64,000 nt of DNA from the NCBI GenBank assembly GCA_021791655.1, contig JAJYWD010000001.1, positions 32,655 through 96,654 on the forward strand, in the 5' to 3' direction. A program made the position numbers and the translations under genes. Within the stretch, counting starts at the first letter, position 1, and each line of letters starts with the position of its first letter. Source of the stretch: Nanobdellota archaeon (GTDB taxonomy: Archaea > Nanobdellota > Nanobdellia > Parvarchaeales > Parvarchaeaceae). Below the pieces are notes generated by a model. That model made no database searches. It was not told the DNA's origin and was given only the letters and a program-made list of their open reading frames with translations. Shown one piece after another: positions 23,719 through 34,573 of this stretch.

Positions 23719-23910
23719 TTTTGGCTGCTGTTCTACAGTCTGTCTTTTCTCTGGCTGAGCCTGCACCCCGCTCTTGCCTTCTGCTTTCAGTTTGGCTATC
23801 TTTTTCTTAAGGCGCTTGTATTTTCCCGCATCAGCTGGCTGTAACCCCTGTGTTTTCTTTATGTTCATTTTCAGGAGTTCCATTTCCAGGTCCTTCAGAT
23901 TTTCTTCCAT
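23680..23910 (-). CDS. Possible divergent ribosomal protein uL29 (Lys-rich)
   Basis: 76 aa. LKDLEMELLKMNIKKTQGLQPADAGKYKRLKKKIAKLK can be aligned to the L29 pattern EELxxxLxELRxELFxLRxQ..G.LENPxRIRxVRRxIARI. It sits in the expected position after uS3, but overlaps the uS3 3' end by 38-80 nt depending on start. Confidence 0.4.
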   Translation of the reverse strand: MEENLKDLEMELLKMNIKKTQGLQPADAGKYKRLKKKIAKLKAEGKSGVQAQPEKRQTVEQQPKSGENNPGEKRNQ

Positions 23911-24499
23911 CCATTTGCACCTCTCCAGGCATTTGTGCCTTTACGACTATTGTGACCTTTATTCCTATCATTCCCCTCTTTAGTAGTAATTGTTTCTTCG
24001 TCGTCCTGACACCGTACTGTTCGGGTTGGCCAGACTTTGGTAGGACGCTCCCTGGCGGTTTAAATTTGAAGTGTGCCGCCCTTTCTTTTATTACACCACC
24101 TATTTCTATTTCTGCACCGCGCGCTCCCGCTCTCATTATATCTTCCAGGGCGCCGTGCGCTATGGTCTTGTACCGCATCGGTCCGTATTTCGAAATTTTG
24201 AACGCTATAGAATCGGCTATAACCTCTGGGTTCAACATTGGGTCGTCCGTTGCTTCTACGTCTATGTGCGGCGGCTCTTGTTTAAAGTATTCACCGAGTT
24301 CCTTAGAAGCCTCTTTTATGAGTTGAGATGCGCGCGTTACGAGGAAACCTGGTTTTGATGTCCTTAGGATAACCTTCATTCCTAACGGCGTCTTCTCTAT
24401 CTTTACCTCGCTTACGCCGAAGTTGCTGAATTTTTTCAGCAGTTTTTCTTTGGCTATCTGTTCACTTATTCTGGTTGCTATTATTTTCCTTGCTAACAT
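23831..24499 (-). CDS. rps3: 30S ribosomal protein uS3
   Basis: 222 aa with an archaeal S3 KH domain plus C-terminal domain (…GVRTTKKQLLLKRGMIGIKVTIV…). Confidence 0.9.
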   Translation of the reverse strand: MLARKIIATRISEQIAKEKLLKKFSNFGVSEVKIEKTPLGMKVILRTSKPGFLVTRASQLIKEASKELGEYFKQEPPHIDVEATDDPMLNPEVIADSIAFKISKYGPMRYKTIAHGALEDIMRAGARGAEIEIGGVIKERAAHFKFKPPGSVLPKSGQPEQYGVRTTKKQLLLKRGMIGIKVTIVVKAQMPGEVQMDGRKSEGPGNGTPENEHKENTGVTAS

Positions 24500-24992
24500 C
24501 CTTTACCTCTTTTTCTGTTTTCTGAACTTCCGCCTGCGCAGCAGTCGCTTCCACCGGTTTTACCGGAGTTTCCTCTTTTTTCTCCTTTGTTTCCTTCTTC
24601 TTCTCAACCTTCGTATAAATAACTATGTTGGTCTTTTTCCCGCGTTTTGAAATTCTTCCGCTGGCATATCTTGGGTAGCCCCCACGCCCTAGATCGTATC
24701 TGCTTATACTCAGCTTTTCAGAAACTCCGCTGAAATTCTCCGCATTACTCTTAAGCTCGTTTAGCATCTTTATTATGCTGAGTGAGGCCTTTTTTGGGTA
24801 ACCGACCGGAACCCCCGCTTTGTGACCGCCACTGGGATATCTTTTGAAAGGAATAGGTGTCGAGCCGCTGCTGACATCCTTTAGTAAAGACACCGCCTTA
24901 TCTATCTCCATCCCTCTTATCCTGACGAGTATTTCATGCACCTGTTTTGTTGATATCGCGAGCCTGTCTCTTCTAACTGAAATTTCTGCCAT
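24462..24992 (-). CDS. rpl22: 50S ribosomal protein uL22
   Basis: 176 aa, archaeal L22 (L17e-like), with a Lys/Glu-rich C-terminal tail. Confidence 0.85.
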   Translation of the reverse strand: MAEISVRRDRLAISTKQVHEILVRIRGMEIDKAVSLLKDVSSGSTPIPFKRYPSGGHKAGVPVGYPKKASLSIIKMLNELKSNAENFSGVSEKLSISRYDLGRGGYPRYASGRISKRGKKTNIVIYTKVEKKKETKEKKEETPVKPVEATAAQAEVQKTEKEVKDVSKENNSNQNK

Positions 24993-24994
24993 AT

Positions 24995-25372
24995 TTACTT
25001 GATAGGAACGAACTCACTAGAACGTGTTGCTCTCATTCCAGGGGTGCCGTGCCTAACCTGTTTCGTTGTCAGAATGAACTCCCCAAGACGATGGAAAACC
25101 ATCTCTGGCTTTACTTCTAATGATATGAATTCCTTTCCATTGTAAACTTTTACCGTTTTGCCCACAAATTCCGGCATTATAAACATTTCTCTGCTGTGTG
25201 TCTTCGCTTCTTTGGGATTTTTGCGCAGTTTTGCAATTAGTTTCTTTTCCTCTGGCGAGAACCCTCTTCTGAGTACGCGCCTTAGGTCAGCATTTACAAT
25301 CTTCTTCAAGTCCTCATCGTTCAGCTTCTTAAGTTCTTCGACCGTCTTCCCTCTGTAATAGAATTCTGCCAT
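24995..25372 (-). CDS. rps19: 30S ribosomal protein uS19
   Basis: 125 aa. …VKVYNGKEFISLEVKPEMVFHRLGEFILTTKQVRHGTPG… matches archaeal S19. Confidence 0.9.
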   Translation of the reverse strand: MAEFYYRGKTVEELKKLNDEDLKKIVNADLRRVLRRGFSPEEKKLIAKLRKNPKEAKTHSREMFIMPEFVGKTVKVYNGKEFISLEVKPEMVFHRLGEFILTTKQVRHGTPGMRATRSSEFVPIK

Positions 25373-25374
25373 AC

Positions 25375-26076
25375 TTATCGTATTCCAGTCCTCTTAGGGG
25401 CTATTGTTCCCACCTTGGCACCGGGTGATGCGTGTCTTGACACGCTTTTGGACTTGTGCTGTGTACTCCTTCTTTTCCCTCCGAATTTATGTTCGTAAGC
25501 ATTCATCGCGACCGCTGCGTTCATGGGCCAGTACCTCCCACGAGCACGTATCATGTGGTAAACGTTACCGGCCTTGTAGAACGGTTTTTCGACCCTCCCT
25601 CCGTTGGCAACTCGGCCCACTATGGCTCTGCAATTCGGGTCCAATGATATAATGTGAGTACTTGGCAGTGCTACGGTTACTCTGTCAGCGTTAACTTCCA
25701 TGATTTTCGCGCTACCGCCACCGCTCCTCACCATCTTACCTCCGTCATTCGGCCTGAGTTCTATGTTGTATACATTAGTTCCTGGCGGCATATCCTTAAG
25801 CCTTAATATTGACCCGTCTTTGACCGAGTCGCTTTTCATGTAAGTTATTAATTGGCCTTCGTATGCACCAGTGAAGGAGGGGAGGAACGCCTTTTCTCCG
25901 TTTTCGAATTTTAGTTCCATTAACGGCACCGTCCTGTACAAATCGTGTAAAAAGCCCACTATCTTTGCATTCATGGAGTCTTCCGAGTTTATTAATCTCG
26001 CTTTAGCCACGGCTCTGAAACTGTTTACTCTAAAAATCCTGCTTTTGCCGCGTCTTCTCGATCTTGGTACTTTCAT
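25375..26076 (-). CDS. rpl2: 50S ribosomal protein uL2 (divergent)
   Basis: 233 aa with an archaeal L2 fold. The near-universal HPHGGG motif reads EHKFGGK here. Confidence 0.85.
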   Translation of the reverse strand: MKVPRSRRRGKSRIFRVNSFRAVAKARLINSEDSMNAKIVGFLHDLYRTVPLMELKFENGEKAFLPSFTGAYEGQLITYMKSDSVKDGSILRLKDMPPGTNVYNIELRPNDGGKMVRSGGGSAKIMEVNADRVTVALPSTHIISLDPNCRAIVGRVANGGRVEKPFYKAGNVYHMIRARGRYWPMNAAVAMNAYEHKFGGKRRSTQHKSKSVSRHASPGAKVGTIAPKRTGIR

Positions 26077-26210: not shown

Positions 26211-27455
26211 ATGCACTCAAAAATGGTAAAATTAGACAACGGGCTCCCGGTGATGTACAAAAAATATCCCATAGATTCATTCAGCATGGTTTTTGTTGTA
26301 AACTACGGTTCCCTTTACGAGAGTAAAAAGGAGAACGGGATAGCCCACTTTCTAGAGCACCTGTTGACAAAACAAACTAAGAATATACCCAGCGAAAAGC
26401 TAAAGAACCGGCTGTTTGATAATGCTATCTTTTGGAATGCAATGACTGGATATGAGCAGATTCAATTCCTTTTTAAGGCACACAAGTCCAAATTCGATAC
26501 GATAGCGAGCACATTGTCTGATATCCTGATAAACCCGAATATCGATGAAAAGGCGGTACGGCTCGAACGTGGGCCGGTTATCACTGAAATGAGGGGGGGA
26601 GACGACAAGTCTCCAGATGCCGTGGCCAGCAGCAAAATAACAAGGGCTGTTTTGGGCGAGCATCCAGCAACCTTTACTGTAGCTGACAGCATGCGTGCAC
26701 TTAGAAATTACATAAACGTCAGCAAGGTTAAAGATACGTACAGTAAGTATTTTACGCCGGACAATTCCGTTCTTTCTGTTACGGGCGGGATAGAGCTTGA
26801 AAAAATGCTACCGGTTGTTAATGATCTGTTTGGTTCCTGGAGTGGGAAGTTTTCTGGCAAGACACTTTCGCCGGCCGAATATCTCCCCCCGTCTAGACGC
26901 ACTTTCAGACTTCGTGGCGTGGATGAAAGTATGGTCGTCCTTGGGAAAGGACTTCCACCGGCGTCCAAGCAGAATTATGACGACGTAAATTGCCTTACTA
27001 TCGCTAATTCCCTGTTGGTCAAGAGCCTGATGCTAGAGCTCAGAGAAAAGACTGGTATAACTTATACCCCCAGCTCTGACAATTCGCACATGACGTCGTT
27101 CGGCATCAATGAGACCAGTGTTTCCGCTTTCAGCCCCAAGTACCTTAACCTAATAGAAAATACAATTTTAACGGAAATTGACAAACTTTATAAGGGTGAG
27201 ATTTCCCATGAAGCCGTTGAAAAAGTAAAGGAAAACACAGTGCTCTCGGGTTTGGTATCCCTCGGAGAAGAGAGTTTCGAGATCGCTGAAGAACTTGGTA
27301 TGGCATATGCAGTGCTTAAGGATCCCACTTATCCCGAGGCTTTGCCGCATCTATTCGAAAGCATAACCATGGATGATATGAGACGAGTCTGTAGTAACCA
27401 TTTAAACCCGGACGATTTTTCGGTCGTGGTGCTTAAGCCGTACAAAAAATGTTAG
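26211..27455 (+). CDS. M16-family zinc peptidase (inverzincin, HxxEH)
   Basis: 414 aa. HFLEHLLTK is the HxxEH zinc motif. Two-lobed M16 architecture. Confidence 0.75.
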   Translation: MHSKMVKLDNGLPVMYKKYPIDSFSMVFVVNYGSLYESKKENGIAHFLEHLLTKQTKNIPSEKLKNRLFDNAIFWNAMTGYEQIQFLFKAHKSKFDTIASTLSDILINPNIDEKAVRLERGPVITEMRGGDDKSPDAVASSKITRAVLGEHPATFTVADSMRALRNYINVSKVKDTYSKYFTPDNSVLSVTGGIELEKMLPVVNDLFGSWSGKFSGKTLSPAEYLPPSRRTFRLRGVDESMVVLGKGLPPASKQNYDDVNCLTIANSLLVKSLMLELREKTGITYTPSSDNSHMTSFGINETSVSAFSPKYLNLIENTILTEIDKLYKGEISHEAVEKVKENTVLSGLVSLGEESFEIAEELGMAYAVLKDPTYPEALPHLFESITMDDMRRVCSNHLNPDDFSVVVLKPYKKC

Positions 27456-28132
27456 GCAATCATTCTAAGTTGAAGTTAGTATTCGGTGAGCCCGTAGCAT
27501 TTTCCAGCGACTACGCCATAATCGGAGATTTGCATCTGGGATTTGAGGAAGAAATGATAAAAGAGGGATTCAACGTGTACAATCAAAATAATAATATACT
27601 GAAAAAGATACGGCAGATCAAGAAAGAAAAGCTTATCCTCCTAGGAGACCTCCGAGCGGAACACGGCGAAATCGGTGTGAGGGAGGCGGGTTTTCTTCTG
27701 CACGCCGTATCGCAGATTTCTAGCGCGTTTTCTCACGTCGTCATAACAAAGGGCAATCACGATGGAGGTCTTGAAAAGATAACCGGTAGGTTCAAAAACG
27801 TCTCCTTGGTAAAGGAATTCATAGACGGGGGTATCGGATTCCTGCACGGTCACGCTCTCCCGTCTAAGGCACTGGTAGAGACGTGCGATACGATGTGCAT
27901 AAGCCACTTGCATCCAATGGTCAAAGTTTACGATGCAAATAATGTGATGTACAAGAAAGACTGCTGGATGCTATTTGACTTTAAACCGTCAAAGAAATCG
28001 GAATCTATCCGGGGAATCGTTGTTCCTAAGTTCAATCCTTACATAGGAGGCACGGATAATATAAAGAACGCCGGGATAATGTCAAGAGCCAGCAATATAA
28101 TGAGGCTCACAGAAGATTTTGTGATGGTCTAG
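27449..28132 (+). CDS. Calcineurin-like metallophosphoesterase
   Basis: 227 aa with motifs GDLHLG, GDL, GNHD and GH. Confidence 0.7.
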   Translation: MLGNHSKLKLVFGEPVAFSSDYAIIGDLHLGFEEEMIKEGFNVYNQNNNILKKIRQIKKEKLILLGDLRAEHGEIGVREAGFLLHAVSQISSAFSHVVITKGNHDGGLEKITGRFKNVSLVKEFIDGGIGFLHGHALPSKALVETCDTMCISHLHPMVKVYDANNVMYKKDCWMLFDFKPSKKSESIRGIVVPKFNPYIGGTDNIKNAGIMSRASNIMRLTEDFVMV

Positions 28133-29139
28133 CGTTTTTCCTTCGTTAGTGCACCCGCCCGTTTCTTTATAGCATCGAGCAGCTCCCTTTCGGTCCTGAA
28201 CATCTTGTCCACGAAATAGGGTGTGAACGGGCTGTATGTGTCAAATGGGAAGTACAGTAGGACCGGCTTTCCGGTCGTGTGCGCGTGCATCCGCTCGCTG
28301 TCCACGCCGCTCGAGTAGTTAAGTGCCGAAAGGTGTATGACCACCATATCGACCTGGTCGACCATCGCATAGTCCCGTCTTACGGTCTGGTTAAATACCA
28401 ATTCCCTGAGTCTCGGTTCTACCTGGTACCCTGCCTTGTAAAAGTCGATATCCGCACCCTTTGGATCAAATACTGTCACGTATTTTTTCAATTTCCTTAC
28501 AAATCGCTTCAGGTTAGCGTATGAGTTGACCCGGTGTTCTATGCTGTAGCTTATGTACACCTTAGGCTTGTTTGGTTTGTATATCAGGTCGTATAACGTC
28601 TGTGGGTCCTCTTTTGAGCCCATCACATAATTTTTCCTACCGATTGCCTTACTTATGAGGTTAACTGTGTACAATTCGACTTCTGACCATATCGCTATCT
28701 CGTACTCGTCTATCTCCTTGTCGGACCATTCCACCTTTGATTTTAGGTTCCTTAGTAGCTTGTCCGGGGAAGCCAGGATGGTTACGAAAAAGTCCGGCTT
28801 TACCTGCTTGAAATCGTCTATGTTAAGTAGGCTCAGAGGCCCATTTTTCCACCAGAAAGACGTCCTTCCATCTATTATGAAGTCGGTGTCTTTGTTGTAC
28901 TTAGTTTCATCCGCTATACGGTGAAGTGCCGCCGCTTTCACAATCTCTAGGGTCTTTATGTCAAGATTAGGCAGGGTTACTGCACTTATTTCTGTGTTTA
29001 TGTCCTTGCCACTCTCTATCATGAGGTCTACAAGGTTCACTATCTTGAGCTTCTTGTTCCTGCTAGAAGCCATTTTTATGACTTCATTCTCCAACTTTAT
29101 CCTGTTGGTCCCTGCTACTGCAGAACTGAACACTAGCAT
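28129..29139 (-). CDS. Two-domain protein: unknown N-terminal domain plus nucleoside 2-deoxyribosyltransferase-like (NDT/Rcl/TIR-like Rossmann) C-terminal domain
   Basis: 336 aa (alternative start at 29073, MASSRNKK). The C-terminal KVYISYSIEH…DMVVIHLSALNYSSGVDSERMHAHTTGKPVLLYFP matches the NDT-family pattern: an N-terminal flavodoxin-like strand, then Glu followed 8 residues later by GKPV. Confidence 0.4.
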   Translation of the reverse strand: MLVFSSAVAGTNRIKLENEVIKMASSRNKKLKIVNLVDLMIESGKDINTEISAVTLPNLDIKTLEIVKAAALHRIADETKYNKDTDFIIDGRTSFWWKNGPLSLLNIDDFKQVKPDFFVTILASPDKLLRNLKSKVEWSDKEIDEYEIAIWSEVELYTVNLISKAIGRKNYVMGSKEDPQTLYDLIYKPNKPKVYISYSIEHRVNSYANLKRFVRKLKKYVTVFDPKGADIDFYKAGYQVEPRLRELVFNQTVRRDYAMVDQVDMVVIHLSALNYSSGVDSERMHAHTTGKPVLLYFPFDTYSPFTPYFVDKMFRTERELLDAIKKRAGALTKEKR

Positions 29140-29239: not shown

Positions 29240-30178
29240 ATGACCCCGAGAGAACTTGGTGCTTATGCCATTGCCGCCCTGCTTATAGTGATCCTTTTCG
29301 CGCTAGGCTCGATATACGCAGTTGCGTACTACTTCTTTATAATAATACTTTTCATAGTTCTATTCTCTGTCTTCTTTGTGACCAGCGTAAAACAGTATTC
29401 GCAGTTTGAAAGGGGCATAATATTCCGTTTGGGCAGGTTTAATAGGATCGCAGGGCCCGGCTGGGCAGTAGTCCTCCCCTTCTTTGAAAAGGAGTATCAG
29501 AGGATAGATGTGCGTGTTAAGATGATGGATCTGGGTCTCAATGATGTTTTTACACAGGATGACATAAGATTGTCGATAGAAGGAACAATATATTACCAAG
29601 TCGTGGACCCCGAGAAGGCTACGTTACAGATAGATAATTACGGCCAAGGGTTGAGTAATCTTGTCCAGTCAGCAGTAAGGAACGAAATGGCCTCTTTATC
29701 GATGAGGCAGGTGTTTGGTAGTCTTGATAAGATGAATGATTTATTGGCAGATGCAATAAGGCACACGACATGGAAATGGGGAATAGACGTGCCAACCGTG
29801 CAGATAAGGACGGTCGCCCCTCCGCAGGAAGTTATTCAGGCCATGCAGCAGCCCGAGATAGCCGCAAATCTGCTTCAGGCACAGAGATTTAAGGCCGATG
29901 CCCAGAGGATTGTGATGGAAGCAATAGGAGAGGGGGGTAAGGCGCTTGATGATAACTCAATAATGTATCTATACCTCCAGGCCCTGAAGCAGATGGGCGA
30001 GTCTAGCTCTTCGAAAATAGTTCTTCCAATGCAGTTTATGCAGGGGCTTGGTGGCATGGCTGGCGGGATAGCCGGTCTGTCAACCGCAGCATTGGCTTCG
30101 CTTGGTGGGCAACAGAACGTACAGAACGTGATTTCCCAGATAAAGACAAAGATAGCAAGCTCTGGGGCTCAGAAGTGA
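29240..30178 (+). CDS. SPFH/band-7 (stomatin/prohibitin-like) membrane protein
   Basis: 312 aa with N-terminal TM helices followed by a GIIFRLGRF…VPTVQIRTV SPFH core and a coiled-coil, Gly-rich C-terminus. Confidence 0.8.
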   Translation: MTPRELGAYAIAALLIVILFALGSIYAVAYYFFIIILFIVLFSVFFVTSVKQYSQFERGIIFRLGRFNRIAGPGWAVVLPFFEKEYQRIDVRVKMMDLGLNDVFTQDDIRLSIEGTIYYQVVDPEKATLQIDNYGQGLSNLVQSAVRNEMASLSMRQVFGSLDKMNDLLADAIRHTTWKWGIDVPTVQIRTVAPPQEVIQAMQQPEIAANLLQAQRFKADAQRIVMEAIGEGGKALDDNSIMYLYLQALKQMGESSSSKIVLPMQFMQGLGGMAGGIAGLSTAALASLGGQQNVQNVISQIKTKIASSGAQK

Positions 30179-32776: not shown

Positions 32777-32911
32777 CAGCATAGCGCTGCGCATAAAGTA
32801 CCTAGAATCAAGTATCTCATTTATCAACAACTCGCGACTTAATAAGTCGCTGCACGCATTTAGAAATAAAAGATAAGATTAAATATGCCACAGTATTATA
32901 ATAAAAATAAT

Positions 32912-33502
32912 ATGCAGCTAGAACGCACATTGGTCGTTGTTAAACCTGACGGCGTAAAGAGGAGACTCATCGGTAAGATAATCCAGAGACTAGAAGAGGC
33001 GGGTTTAAAACTGGTTGCTCTAAAGATGTTTACGCCGTCGGTAGACCTTGTAAAAAGTAACTATCCCGAAAGCGATGAATGGTTTAAGAAGGCTGGAGAC
33101 AGAAGTATAAACACTTTCAAGGAGATGGGCGTGAATATAGAGCAGAAATTCGGCACTGATAATCCAATAGAAGTCGGTAAAATAATAAAGAAGTGGATAG
33201 TACGATTTATGACCTCTGGGAATGTAGTGGCTATGGTTTGGGAAGGAAACAGGGCGGCAGATAACGTCAGGCGTTTGATAGGCGAGACAGATCCGTTAAA
33301 GGCGCAGCCTGGAACCATAAGGGGGGATTTTTCGGTGGATAACGTCATACTGGGAAACAGTTCGAATAGACCTATGGCAAATGTCGTTCACGCTTCTGGC
33401 AATAGAGAAGAGGCACTAACCGAGATTCCACTGTGGTTTAAGTCGGAGGAGATTCTCAGATACACGCGGGAAGGGGAGGATGCATTTTACAAGCAATGGT
33501 AA
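32912..33502 (+). CDS. ndk: Nucleoside diphosphate kinase-like protein with internal insertion (paralogue 1)
   Basis: N-terminus MQLERTLVVVKPDGVKRRLIGKIIQRLEEAGLKLVALKM matches the NDK N-terminus and His region NVVHASGN. A roughly 45-aa insertion is present relative to the canonical roughly 150-aa NDK. The raw ORF begins 27 nt upstream (32885). Confidence 0.7.
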   Translation: MQLERTLVVVKPDGVKRRLIGKIIQRLEEAGLKLVALKMFTPSVDLVKSNYPESDEWFKKAGDRSINTFKEMGVNIEQKFGTDNPIEVGKIIKKWIVRFMTSGNVVAMVWEGNRAADNVRRLIGETDPLKAQPGTIRGDFSVDNVILGNSSNRPMANVVHASGNREEALTEIPLWFKSEEILRYTREGEDAFYKQW

Positions 33503-34029
33503 CTTCAGAAAAAACGTTCGTGATGATAAAACCCGATGCAATTTCTCGAGGATTGGTGGGTGAGATAGTGGGGCGTTTCGAGCGTGCAGGCCTAAATATA
33601 ATAAAGATGAACATGGTACGGCTCGAAAGAGTGAAAGCAGAAGCTCTCTATCAATCTGATGAAGCGTGGCTTAACATGCTGACTTCTAAGGCTAAAGAAG
33701 CATTCGAAGCAGTCGGTGATAAGCTTGAGATAGGAGATACACTTACTTACGGTAAGCAGATAAGGGCGTGGCTCATAGATTATGTCACCTCAGGGCCAGT
33801 AATTCTCATGGTAATAGAAGCGACTAAAGCAGTATCTGTTGTCAGAAAGCTCGTAGGTTCAACAGACGCGTCAATTGCTGCGGCTGGAACGGTAAGGGGA
33901 GATTTGTGTAGCGATTCGCTTTATGTAGCAAATGTAGAAAAGCGCGCTATAAAGACGCTACTTCATGCCTCTGGTAACCTAAAGGAAGCGAAAAGGGAAA
34001 TCTCCTTGATGTTCGGAGACCCTGTATAA
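33496..34029 (+). CDS. ndk: Nucleoside diphosphate kinase-like protein with internal insertion (paralogue 2)
   Basis: 177 aa, TFVMIKPDAISRGLVGEIVGRFERAGLNIIKMNMV, with His region TLLHASGN. Overlaps paralogue 1 by 7 nt. Confidence 0.7.
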   Translation: MVTSEKTFVMIKPDAISRGLVGEIVGRFERAGLNIIKMNMVRLERVKAEALYQSDEAWLNMLTSKAKEAFEAVGDKLEIGDTLTYGKQIRAWLIDYVTSGPVILMVIEATKAVSVVRKLVGSTDASIAAAGTVRGDLCSDSLYVANVEKRAIKTLLHASGNLKEAKREISLMFGDPV

Positions 34030-34036
34030 ACAGCTT

Positions 34037-34573
34037 ATGGTTATAGGAACGGAAGAGTTACTGAAACTCGTCAGAGAAAATAAGCTTGTTGAGAATCTTT
34101 CTGAAAGAGAGTTAACTAATCCAGAGGGCGCGGGTCTTGAGGTAAGAGTTGGTGAGATTTATGCCTTAAGCGATAGTACGGCATTTCTTGGCGTTATCGA
34201 GCGACAGACGCCTGAAATAAAACTTATTGCTAAATATGGGGTACAAAAAGATTACGTTCTGGAACCAAATGAGTACGTTCTGATAAAGACAATCGAGAAA
34301 GTAAATCTTCCAAAAGAAATACAGGGCCTTACAATGCCACGCAGCACTCTTCAGCGGTGTGGAATCATACTGATCAGCACGCAGATGGATCCAGGTTACT
34401 CGGGAGAGCTAACGTTCGGAATGAAAAACCTGGGCGGAAATAAATTCCGCTTGGAACTTGGTGCAAGAGTGGCAAAACTGCTTTTTGTCAAAGTAGATGG
34501 TTCTGCAAATCTATACCGCGGGCAATGGAAAGGCGGCAGGGTTTCAACTGACGGTCGCGAAAAACAGGTTTGA
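34037..34573 (+). CDS. dcd: dCTP deaminase / dUTPase-family protein
   Basis: 178 aa jelly-roll with …LTMPRSTLQRCGIILISTQMDPGYSGELTFGMKNLG… (dUTPase motif-3-like). Confidence 0.7.
   Translation: MVIGTEELLKLVRENKLVENLSERELTNPEGAGLEVRVGEIYALSDSTAFLGVIERQTPEIKLIAKYGVQKDYVLEPNEYVLIKTIEKVNLPKEIQGLTMPRSTLQRCGIILISTQMDPGYSGELTFGMKNLGGNKFRLELGARVAKLLFVKVDGSANLYRGQWKGGRVSTDGREKQV

Follow-up and report, generated by a model that had tools for sequence, protein, structure and literature searches.

An adenylate-kinase-like domain fused to a predicted DNPH1-like deoxynucleotide N-glycosidase in Parvarchaeales and other prokaryotes

Nucleotide hydrolysis of the DNPH1 type has been investigated most fully in mammals, where it serves as a drug target. 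A prokaryotic enzyme of this kind may be encoded in the stretch of DNA analysed here, which comprises 64,000 nucleotides of contig JAJYWD010000001.1 (positions 32,655 to 96,654; assembly GCA_021791655.1) from a Nanobdellota archaeon of the Parvarchaeales, and is hereafter called the window. The gene in question is an open reading frame (ORF) on the minus strand, at 28129-29139, which starts with ATG and holds 336 codons followed by a stop. In the 336-aa protein, a domain with the fold of archaeal adenylate kinases (AKs), degenerate in its catalytic motifs, is followed by a domain of the nucleoside 2-deoxyribosyltransferase (NDT) superfamily. On balance, and with a slight leaning only, we favour the reading in which the protein is a 2'-deoxynucleoside 5'-monophosphate (dNMP) N-glycosidase that supplies 2-deoxyribose-5-phosphate (dR5P) to DeoC, and in which the kinase-derived domain binds nucleotides but has no catalytic role.

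Several enzymes of the NDT superfamily have been described in sufficient detail to guide this comparison. The catalytic triad of DNPH1 is formed by Y24, D80 and E104, the last of which forms a covalent glycosyl intermediate, while the phosphate is held by S98 and by S128' of the partner subunit (PMC10603095). In MilB, a cytidine monophosphate (CMP) N-glycosidase, the phosphate is bound by Ser97 and Gly99, situated six and four residues before the catalytic Glu (Glu-6 and Glu-4), and the exchange F17Y reverses the preference for CMP into one for dCMP (PMC4081090). Glycosidases of nucleoside monophosphates (NMPs) and those of dNMPs can be told apart by the presence of Phe or Tyr, respectively, the NLM motif works in trans, and, as of the same publication, no transglycosylation by NMP or dNMP glycosidases had been reported (PMC7308715).

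The family to which the window protein belongs resembles DNPH1/Rcl in its fold, in the positions of the Tyr/Asp/Glu triad, and in the phosphate-binding Ser at Glu-6. Predicted likenesses are a 2'-deoxy, 5'-phosphorylated substrate, dR5P as the product, and a Ser that probably acts in trans (S303, roughly equivalent to S128'). However, the identity between the two is only about 15-20%, and DNPH1 lacks the AK-like N-terminal domain of 185 residues that the family carries. Unlike DNPH1, the family is prokaryotic, being found in DPANN archaea, in the Candidate Phyla Radiation (CPR) and in Chloroflexota, and it is linked to DeoC, ThyA and NUDIX genes. The CMP N-glycosidases MilB, BcmB and BlsM are likewise nucleotide hydrolases of the NDT superfamily whose phosphate-binding Ser and Gly lie at Glu-6 and Glu-4, and genes of the MilB type, too, show linkage to ThyA-like genes (PMC4081090). 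They differ in having Phe in place of the invariant Tyr of the family, in their single-domain organisation, and in their role in antibiotic biosynthesis. The NDTs proper (PF05014), represented by the Desulfotalea structure 7o62 and the L. leichmannii enzyme (LlNDT), are the best structural match, with target-normalised TM scores (TMt) of 0.76-0.79, and share with the family the strand-1 motif Y-L-x-x-P, the aligned Asp and the Glu nucleophile. Nevertheless, they possess Asp (D92 in LlNDT) and Asn (of the NLM motif) where the family has Ser276 and Ser303, and they act on nucleosides, transferring the sugar rather than releasing it.

The C-terminal domain and its active site

A C-terminal third of the NDT/Rcl type had been proposed in an initial annotation made from the nucleotide sequence, and this proposal was borne out by family profiles, by relatives that reach the PF05014 cut-off, and by the predicted fold. 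The AlphaFold2 (AF2) model of the full-length protein has a predicted local distance difference test score (pLDDT) of 88.3 and a predicted TM score (pTM) of 0.89. In this model, the C-terminal domain (residues 186-336; 28132-28584, on the minus strand like all other parts of the gene given below) has the NDT-superfamily fold. When the isolated domain was compared with PDB structures by Foldseek, the best 50 matches were all NDT, DNPH1/Rcl or YtoQ proteins, with no TIR or SLOG structure among them; the first was 7o62 (E 4e-6, TMt 0.79), which was also found with the full-length model. On the sequence level, a profile built from 32 diverse C-terminal domains was run against PDB sequences, and its first 14 matches all belong to the NDT superfamily, including 7o62, BcmB (4jen, the second-best match), DNPH1, LlNDT, 7m5h, 6evs, Rcl and YtoQ. 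A search of PDB sequences with the single C-terminal domain sequence gave nothing. PF05014 itself is weakly matched, below its threshold, by 26 of 33 close homologues (best E 6.7e-5), and two distant relatives, P0096 with 28.8 bits and P0084 with 28.5 bits, reach or touch the cut-off of 28.8.

In regard to the active site, conservation was counted in an alignment of 114 diverse full-length relatives, which are about 25% identical to the window protein and to which all counts out of 114 refer. Only Y195 (28555-28557), P226, D256, G278 and E282 are fully invariant, all of them in the C-terminal domain. They are followed by the near-invariant P304 (113/114), F305 (112/114) and R255 (108/114), while S303 is kept in 93 relatives and the position of S276 is occupied by Ser in 100 and by Thr or Ala in the remainder. 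The two motifs highlighted at the outset were located at residues 193-199 (KVYISYS) and 276-282 (SSGVDSE; 28294-28314), although the distance from the Glu to the GKPV motif had been miscounted, as seven residues and not eight separate E282 from G290.

The Glu that had been singled out as catalytic keeps this assignment, as the predicted covalent nucleophile: E282, conserved in all 114 relatives, aligns to E104 of DNPH1 and E98 of LlNDT, as well as to the corresponding Glu of 7o62 and BcmB, and in the AF2 model it lies within the helix 277-288, after the strand 265-269. D256, which together with R255 occupies 28372-28377, aligns to D80 of DNPH1 and D72 of LlNDT, the general-acid Asp. Y195 aligns to the strand-1 Tyr of 7o62 (PKLYLAAP), a position held by Phe in BcmB (4jen); this equivalence comes from the 7o62 alignment only, the alignment of DNPH1 and LlNDT by hmmalign having left the strand-1 Tyr and the C-terminal Ser region unaligned. 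In its central part, the DNPH1 sequence used there is consistent with the PDB profile alignment. S276, at Glu-6, aligns to S98 of DNPH1 and to the Ser of BcmB, whereas true NDTs have Asp at this place. Finally, the SPF motif (residues 303-305; 28225-28233) aligns to NPM of 7o62, and the pLDDT of the monomer model falls to 64 there. Both observations fit an element completed by a second subunit, and SPF is probably the counterpart of the in-trans element, NLM or S128' of DNPH1, contributed by the partner.

Taken from these residues, the substrates are predicted to be 2'-deoxy compounds, because the selector position is occupied by Tyr (Y195) instead of Phe, and to carry a 5'-phosphate, because Ser at Glu-6 and Gly at Glu-4 correspond to the phosphate ligands of MilB and DNPH1.

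DeoC neighbourhoods and the predicted reaction

The substrate of DeoC, dR5P, is the product of a dNMP N-glycosidase, and not of a nucleoside transferase or a ribonucleotide hydrolase. Gene neighbourhoods were surveyed by tblastn over 58 sequences, giving about 57 loci, and DeoC was found as the immediate neighbour of the family gene in four of them (L056, L057, L018 and L021). Of the DeoC calls in L056 and L057, one scores 215 and the other 135 bits, both above the TIGR00126 equivalog cut-off of 117 bits. In L057 the gene adjoins DeoC, followed by an ORF of unknown function, ThyA and Tmk, while in L056 it adjoins DeoC and the other neighbours are archaeal-looking. The remaining two loci, both from Parvarchaeales, have DeoC directly upstream on the same strand (150 bits in L018 and 148 bits in L021), and in both of them the stop codon of DeoC overlaps the ATG of the family gene by 4 nt (ATGA). 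Judged from the sequence, such an overlap indicates that DeoC is translationally coupled to the family gene, which in turn would imply that the family enzyme releases free sugar phosphate. According to a rough estimate, which assumes a chance of about 2 in 1000 per genome, it is very unlikely that at least three independent DeoC adjacencies among about 12 independent contexts arose by chance.

Other neighbours also belong to deoxynucleotide metabolism. In a complete Niyogibacteria genome (L053), the homologue follows Tmk, ThyA, DHFR and an ORF of unknown function in the same direction, with a NUDIX gene only 3 bp downstream and a dCMP deaminase gene next, on the opposite strand. NUDIX genes were found nearby in five further Parvarchaeal loci. 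The idea of an Rcl/DNPH1-type N-glycosidase, which the initial annotation had named among other options, is thus favoured by the triad, by the Ser at Glu-6, and by the DeoC context.

Alternatively, the enzyme could be a transferase rather than a hydrolase, exchanging bases on deoxynucleosides, as classical NDTs do, or on dNMPs, and in this way aiding organisms that are poor in de novo synthesis. The carriers are indeed DPANN and CPR organisms with reduced genomes, the nearest structural match (7o62) is a true NDT, the first motif, YLSYP, is like YLAAP of NDTs, and the chemistry of a covalent intermediate would be the same in both cases. However, the Asp by which NDTs bind the 5'-OH is exchanged for Ser (S276), the tight coupling to DeoC implies the release of free sugar phosphate, and none of the NMP or dNMP glycosidases covered by the above-cited work (PMC7308715) was reported to transglycosylate. 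We consequently see a small chance for base exchange.

A slightly smaller chance is given to another substrate. In such a scenario the enzyme would be an N-glycosidase of ribonucleotides or modified nucleotides, similar to MilB/BcmB or to LOG, or a glycohydrolase of the NAD/ADP-ribose type whose AK-like domain holds the adenylate half. The second place of BcmB among the sequence matches could be explained in this way, and a dinucleotide would be a suitable ligand for an AK fold, in which two nucleotides are bound head to head; furthermore, a LOG-like gene adjoins the family gene in L056 and a Macro-domain gene lies nearby in L055. On the other hand, the invariant Tyr at the Phe/Tyr selector position predicts a 2'-deoxy substrate, and a context of DeoC, ThyA, Tmk and dCMP deaminase is specific for deoxynucleotides. 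The LOG-like protein mentioned is encoded divergently, upstream of the DeoC-linked copy (4375-4950 of L056, minus strand), and is a Rossmann protein related to TIGR00725 (88 bits, cut-off 107), that is, another fold of the nucleotide-N-glycosidase type.

The N-terminal domain and the proposed mechanism

The first 185 residues (28585-29139), originally described as matching nothing, turned out to form a P-loop fold derived from adenylate kinase. Pfam AAA_17 scores above its threshold there (E 1.9e-8), a profile made from 33 homologues matches the archaeal AKs 1ki9 and 6pjw (E about 1e-6), and the AF2 model superposes on the archaeal AKs 6ln3 and 6pjw in Foldseek with E values of about 1e-11 and target-normalised TM scores of 0.82-0.86 over about 190 columns. 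The likeness to archaeal AKs (NF003122/PRK04040; 1ki9, 6pjw, 6ln3 and 1nks) therefore concerns the fold of the whole domain as well as homology at the profile level, and the domain, as modelled, is a complete archaeal AK fold.

The catalytic motifs present a different picture. Where archaeal AKs have GVPGVGGTT, following the Walker A pattern GxPGxG[K/G/S][ST]T, the window protein has SSAVAGTNR (residues 5-13; 29101-29127), continuing as SSAVAGTNRI. The loop of its Parvarchaeales clade reads SxAxAGSNR instead, with S5, A9, G10 and R13 invariant within the clade. Across the 114 diverse relatives the loop is T-G-I-S-G-S-G-[R/K], with Arg in 50 and Lys in 34 of them at position 13, while position 14, after the basic residue, is variable and never conserved as Ser or Thr. 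In addition, the equivalents of the AK arginines in the AMP site (DRDxMR) and in the LID (RR..R.RD) are not conserved among these relatives, and the curated model of archaeal AKs, NF003122, gives the window protein 20.3 bits against a cut-off of 155. As the domain lacks the Walker A pattern together with the arginines of the AMP site and the LID, we infer from these motifs that the domain is a kinase-derived module that would not carry out phosphotransfer.

The strongest conservation in this domain lies elsewhere. W151 is kept in 110 and E155 in 105 of the 114 relatives, making WSEVE (residues 151-155; 28675-28689) the most conserved motif of the domain, and these two residues belong to a conserved aromatic/acidic set that also includes H92, F95, W97 and W138. 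A location of WSEVE in the domain interface or in a ligand pocket would be a guess. The window protein itself deviates at residue 92 (28849-28851), where it has Arg. His is found there in 91 of the 114 relatives and in almost all of the other members from Parvarchaeales, as part of a DGH motif that corresponds to DTH of archaeal AKs.

It is also possible that the N-terminal domain is still active, as a (deoxy)nucleoside or nucleotide kinase that makes dNMP or channels it to the C-terminal domain. Such a bifunctional enzyme would provide a two-step route from deoxynucleosides to dR5P without a phosphorylase and a mutase. The full AK fold has been kept, the loop of 84 of the 114 relatives is rich in glycine and bears a basic residue where Walker A has its Lys, this residue being Lys in 34 of them, the pTM of 0.89 suggests tight and confidently predicted packing of the domains, almost the entire family shows the fusion, and Tmk and NDK genes lie near some of the loci. 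Against this, the loop of the window clade has lost two of the three glycines and has no Lys, a conserved Ser or Thr after the basic residue is found nowhere in the family, conservation is lacking for the arginines of the AMP site and the LID, and the NF003122 score is 20 bits against a cut-off of 155; two catalytic functions in one protein appear to us improbable, to the same degree as base exchange.

Least probable of all the explanations considered, and close to dismissible in our view, is a genuine adenylate kinase with an accessory C-terminal domain, as the JGI annotation has it. Besides the AK fold and the AAA_17 match, source names that read "adenylate kinase" speak for it, and tblastn with adenylate kinases detected no canonical adk elsewhere in the window, although a window of 64 kb is such a small part of the genome that this absence says little. 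The residues missing from the catalytic P-loop, the AMP site and the LID, the NF003122 score just mentioned, and the fact that the invariant residues of the family sit in the C-terminal domain all stand in opposition to it.

According to the model that we prefer, with a dNMP N-glycosidase feeding DeoC, the C-terminal domain would act as a retaining N-glycosidase similar to DNPH1/Rcl. E282 would attack C1' of a dNMP, giving a covalent E282-deoxyribosyl-phosphate intermediate, while the leaving base would be protonated by D256 as the general acid. Y195 would position the sugar and exclude a 2'-OH, and the 5'-phosphate would be held by S276 and G278, probably together with S303 from the partner subunit. 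Water would then free dR5P. In this manner, scavenged or unwanted dNMPs could be converted into a reusable base, which is salvaged, and dR5P, which DeoC would cleave into glyceraldehyde-3-phosphate (G3P) and acetaldehyde, and NUDIX enzymes may feed the process with dNMPs derived from dNTPs, including non-canonical ones. The AK-like domain would most likely bind a nucleotide or phosphate and serve as a regulator or as an oligomerisation scaffold, and not as a kinase. Archaeal AKs are trimers, and enzymes of the NDT type are dimers or hexamers.

Several observations weigh against this model. The window protein scores 18.1 bits with PF05014, below the gathering threshold of 28.8, and a profile of the C-terminal domain limited to the close family retrieved no NDT protein from PDB sequences. 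The phosphate loop of DNPH1, GSIRGGR, is absent, the corresponding stretch being YISYSIEHR in the window protein and YLSYPMTH in the family, and the strand-1 motif of the family is nearer to the motif YLAGP of nucleoside-type NDTs. The equivalence of S303 and S128' comes from one profile alignment to 7o62 and from spacing, not from superposed structures. Furthermore, DeoC is absent beside the gene in the window and adjacent to it in only four of the approximately 57 loci. Finally, the conservation of W151, E155, H92, F95 and W97 implies that the N-terminal domain does something specific, which the model leaves unexplained.

A more far-reaching version of the same model, which we consider rather unlikely, would see in the fusion a hitherto overlooked point at which carbon and bases from DNA enter the metabolism of ultra-small symbionts, namely DPANN archaea and CPR bacteria. 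The enzyme, dedicated to the conversion of dNMPs (or deoxynucleosides) into base and dR5P, would there take the place of the classical DeoA/DeoD-DeoB route together with DeoC, and the AK-derived domain would be either a nucleotide-sensing switch, gating the activity by the ATP/dNTP pool, or a residual kinase, making the enzyme bifunctional.

Distribution of the family and genes around it

All of the 69 close homologues found (46-60% identity) have the same two-domain length, and a protein identical to that of the window is recorded from three contigs (P0001). A scan of species-representative genomes with a profile of the close family retrieved 44 genomes, which carry various NCBI labels and are all Parvarchaeales-type DPANN, ARMAN-4 and ARMAN-5 included. 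Nearly every one of these 44 holds one copy, with 46-61% identity, and its behaviour within Parvarchaeales is that of a core gene with vertical inheritance. The ARMAN-4 assembly contains two separate full-length copies (L019 and L029, on scaffolds GG730042 and GG730059) with 55% and 53% identity to the protein of the window; they could represent a pair of paralogues or result from a bin made from a mixed population.

Beyond the close family, an exhaustive search with a hidden Markov model of the C-terminal domain detected at least 401 representatives of clusters formed at 50% identity, 134 of them with E values not exceeding 1e-10. Fusion is the rule there as well, as most of the best 150 distant representatives are 320-430 aa long, with the C-terminal domain starting from about residue 180-200. 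These distant relatives form two large groups, of which one includes Chloroflexota and unclassified bacteria, while the other is mostly composed of Patescibacteria/CPR (Niyogibacteria), with the addition of a Woesearchaeota archaeon. No Pfam or NCBIfam model covers the whole protein, the generic AAA_17 being the only one to pass its cut-off, and literature searches found no description of the fusion architecture, of a link between DeoC and DNPH1, or of a characterised member. The two-domain architecture is thus that of a large, unnamed family in which known folds are newly combined.

Members of the family are named "ATP-binding protein", "AAA family ATPase", "adenylate kinase" or "hypothetical" in the source databases. 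The labels "adenylate kinase" and "AAA family ATPase" are probably erroneous, and metabolic reconstructions of DPANN and CPR organisms could be led astray by them. A reduced capacity for biosynthesis and a dependence on scavenged material are commonly attributed to these organisms. A DNPH1-like enzyme coupled to DeoC, if the proposed function is true, would add a testable step from dNMP to base and dR5P, and further to G3P and acetaldehyde, and it would extend hydrolysis of the DNPH1 type from mammals to prokaryotes, in the form of a large family whose architecture is new. An AK fold that is strongly conserved yet devoid of catalytic residues would also be a clear-cut example of a glycosidase that has recruited a pseudo-kinase.

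Departures from the basic architecture were also observed. Two relatives, P0190 (566 aa) and P0192 (614 aa), apparently have two tandem AK-like domains before a single NDT-like domain, judging from sequence, with Pfam giving only one AAA_17 stretch in P0192. A third, P0119 (491 aa), has a NUDIX domain fused at its C-terminus (E 1e-12). A block of genes that begins with the family gene is common to two bacterial relatives (L005 6001-9479 and L004 6001-9584), and in it the family gene is followed by a Cys-rich protein of 165 aa without a Pfam match (62% identity between the loci), an ORF of 348 aa with a weak PF05014 match that is probably a tandem paralogue of the family gene, and, as the last gene, a hexapeptide-repeat (LbH) protein.

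In the window, the immediate neighbours are those first reported: a convergent calcineurin-like phosphoesterase gene (Metallophos, 27449-28132, plus strand; Pfam E 3e-7) and a divergent SPFH/Band_7 gene (29240-30178, plus strand; E 4e-31), separated from the target gene by a 100 bp spacer. The same order, Band_7 - gene - Metallophos, is shared by 11-12 loci of Parvarchaeales, all of one subclade. A functional weight of these flanks is not supported, as nothing was found that ties them to the function, and a functional linkage to Metallophos and SPFH was rejected because the synteny is limited to that subclade. The stop codons of the target gene and of the Metallophos gene overlap at 28129-28132 (CTAG), and the Metallophos protein is nearest to TIGR00024, an archaeal SbcD-related putative phosphoesterase model (79 bits), and to PdeM-like models, all scoring below their cut-offs. 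The convergent pair itself was found in 12 loci of Parvarchaeales.

The rest of the window is archaeal-looking and of a housekeeping character, with ribosomal proteins L2, S19, L22 and S3, SMC, RtcB, Mrp/Nuo antiporter subunits, TatD and two NDKs. These surroundings bear on a further explanation, brought up in the initial annotation, in which the protein would be a defence or signalling module, that is, an NDT/TIR/SLOG-like effector or sensor of nucleotide-based immunity. NDT-like effectors are known from type II retrons (PMC7736814), and those of Retron-Sen2 and Retron-Eco1 resemble the family in having an NDT-like domain fused to a second domain; a weak mSLOG match (E 0.029) was also found, in one relative only (P0070). 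In the retrons, however, the partner domain is DNA-binding and a reverse transcriptase (RT) and a non-coding RNA (ncRNA) lie beside it, whereas the partner in the family is AK-like. PADLOC, run on the protein, on two relatives and on the products of the two adjacent genes, gave no match, PHROGs gave trivial matches only, and inspection of the loci revealed neither an RT nor an ncRNA nor any other defence gene in the vicinity. With housekeeping genes as neighbours, no TIR or SLOG among the best 50 folds, and the inheritance of a core gene present as one copy in nearly all Parvarchaeales genomes of the scan, the hypothesis was rejected, and a defence role can be regarded as very improbable.

Some additional features of the window were recorded. 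The ribosomal run L2-S19-L22-S3 (23831-26076, minus strand) ends at S3, without the usual long archaeal cluster beyond it, and an M16 peptidase gene (26211-27455, plus strand) lies between the L2 side of this run and Metallophos; in the relative L006, the same block from L2 to S3 comes after Metallophos. At 32885-33502 and 33496-34029 (plus strand), two tandem, diverged NDK paralogues (34% identity) have overlapping ends and a split Pfam match each. They are followed by an ORF of the dCTP deaminase/dUTPase family at 34037-34573 (plus strand; TIGR02274 88.6 bits, cut-off 92.8), and this deoxynucleotide cluster (32885-34573) is located 4-5 kb from the target gene.

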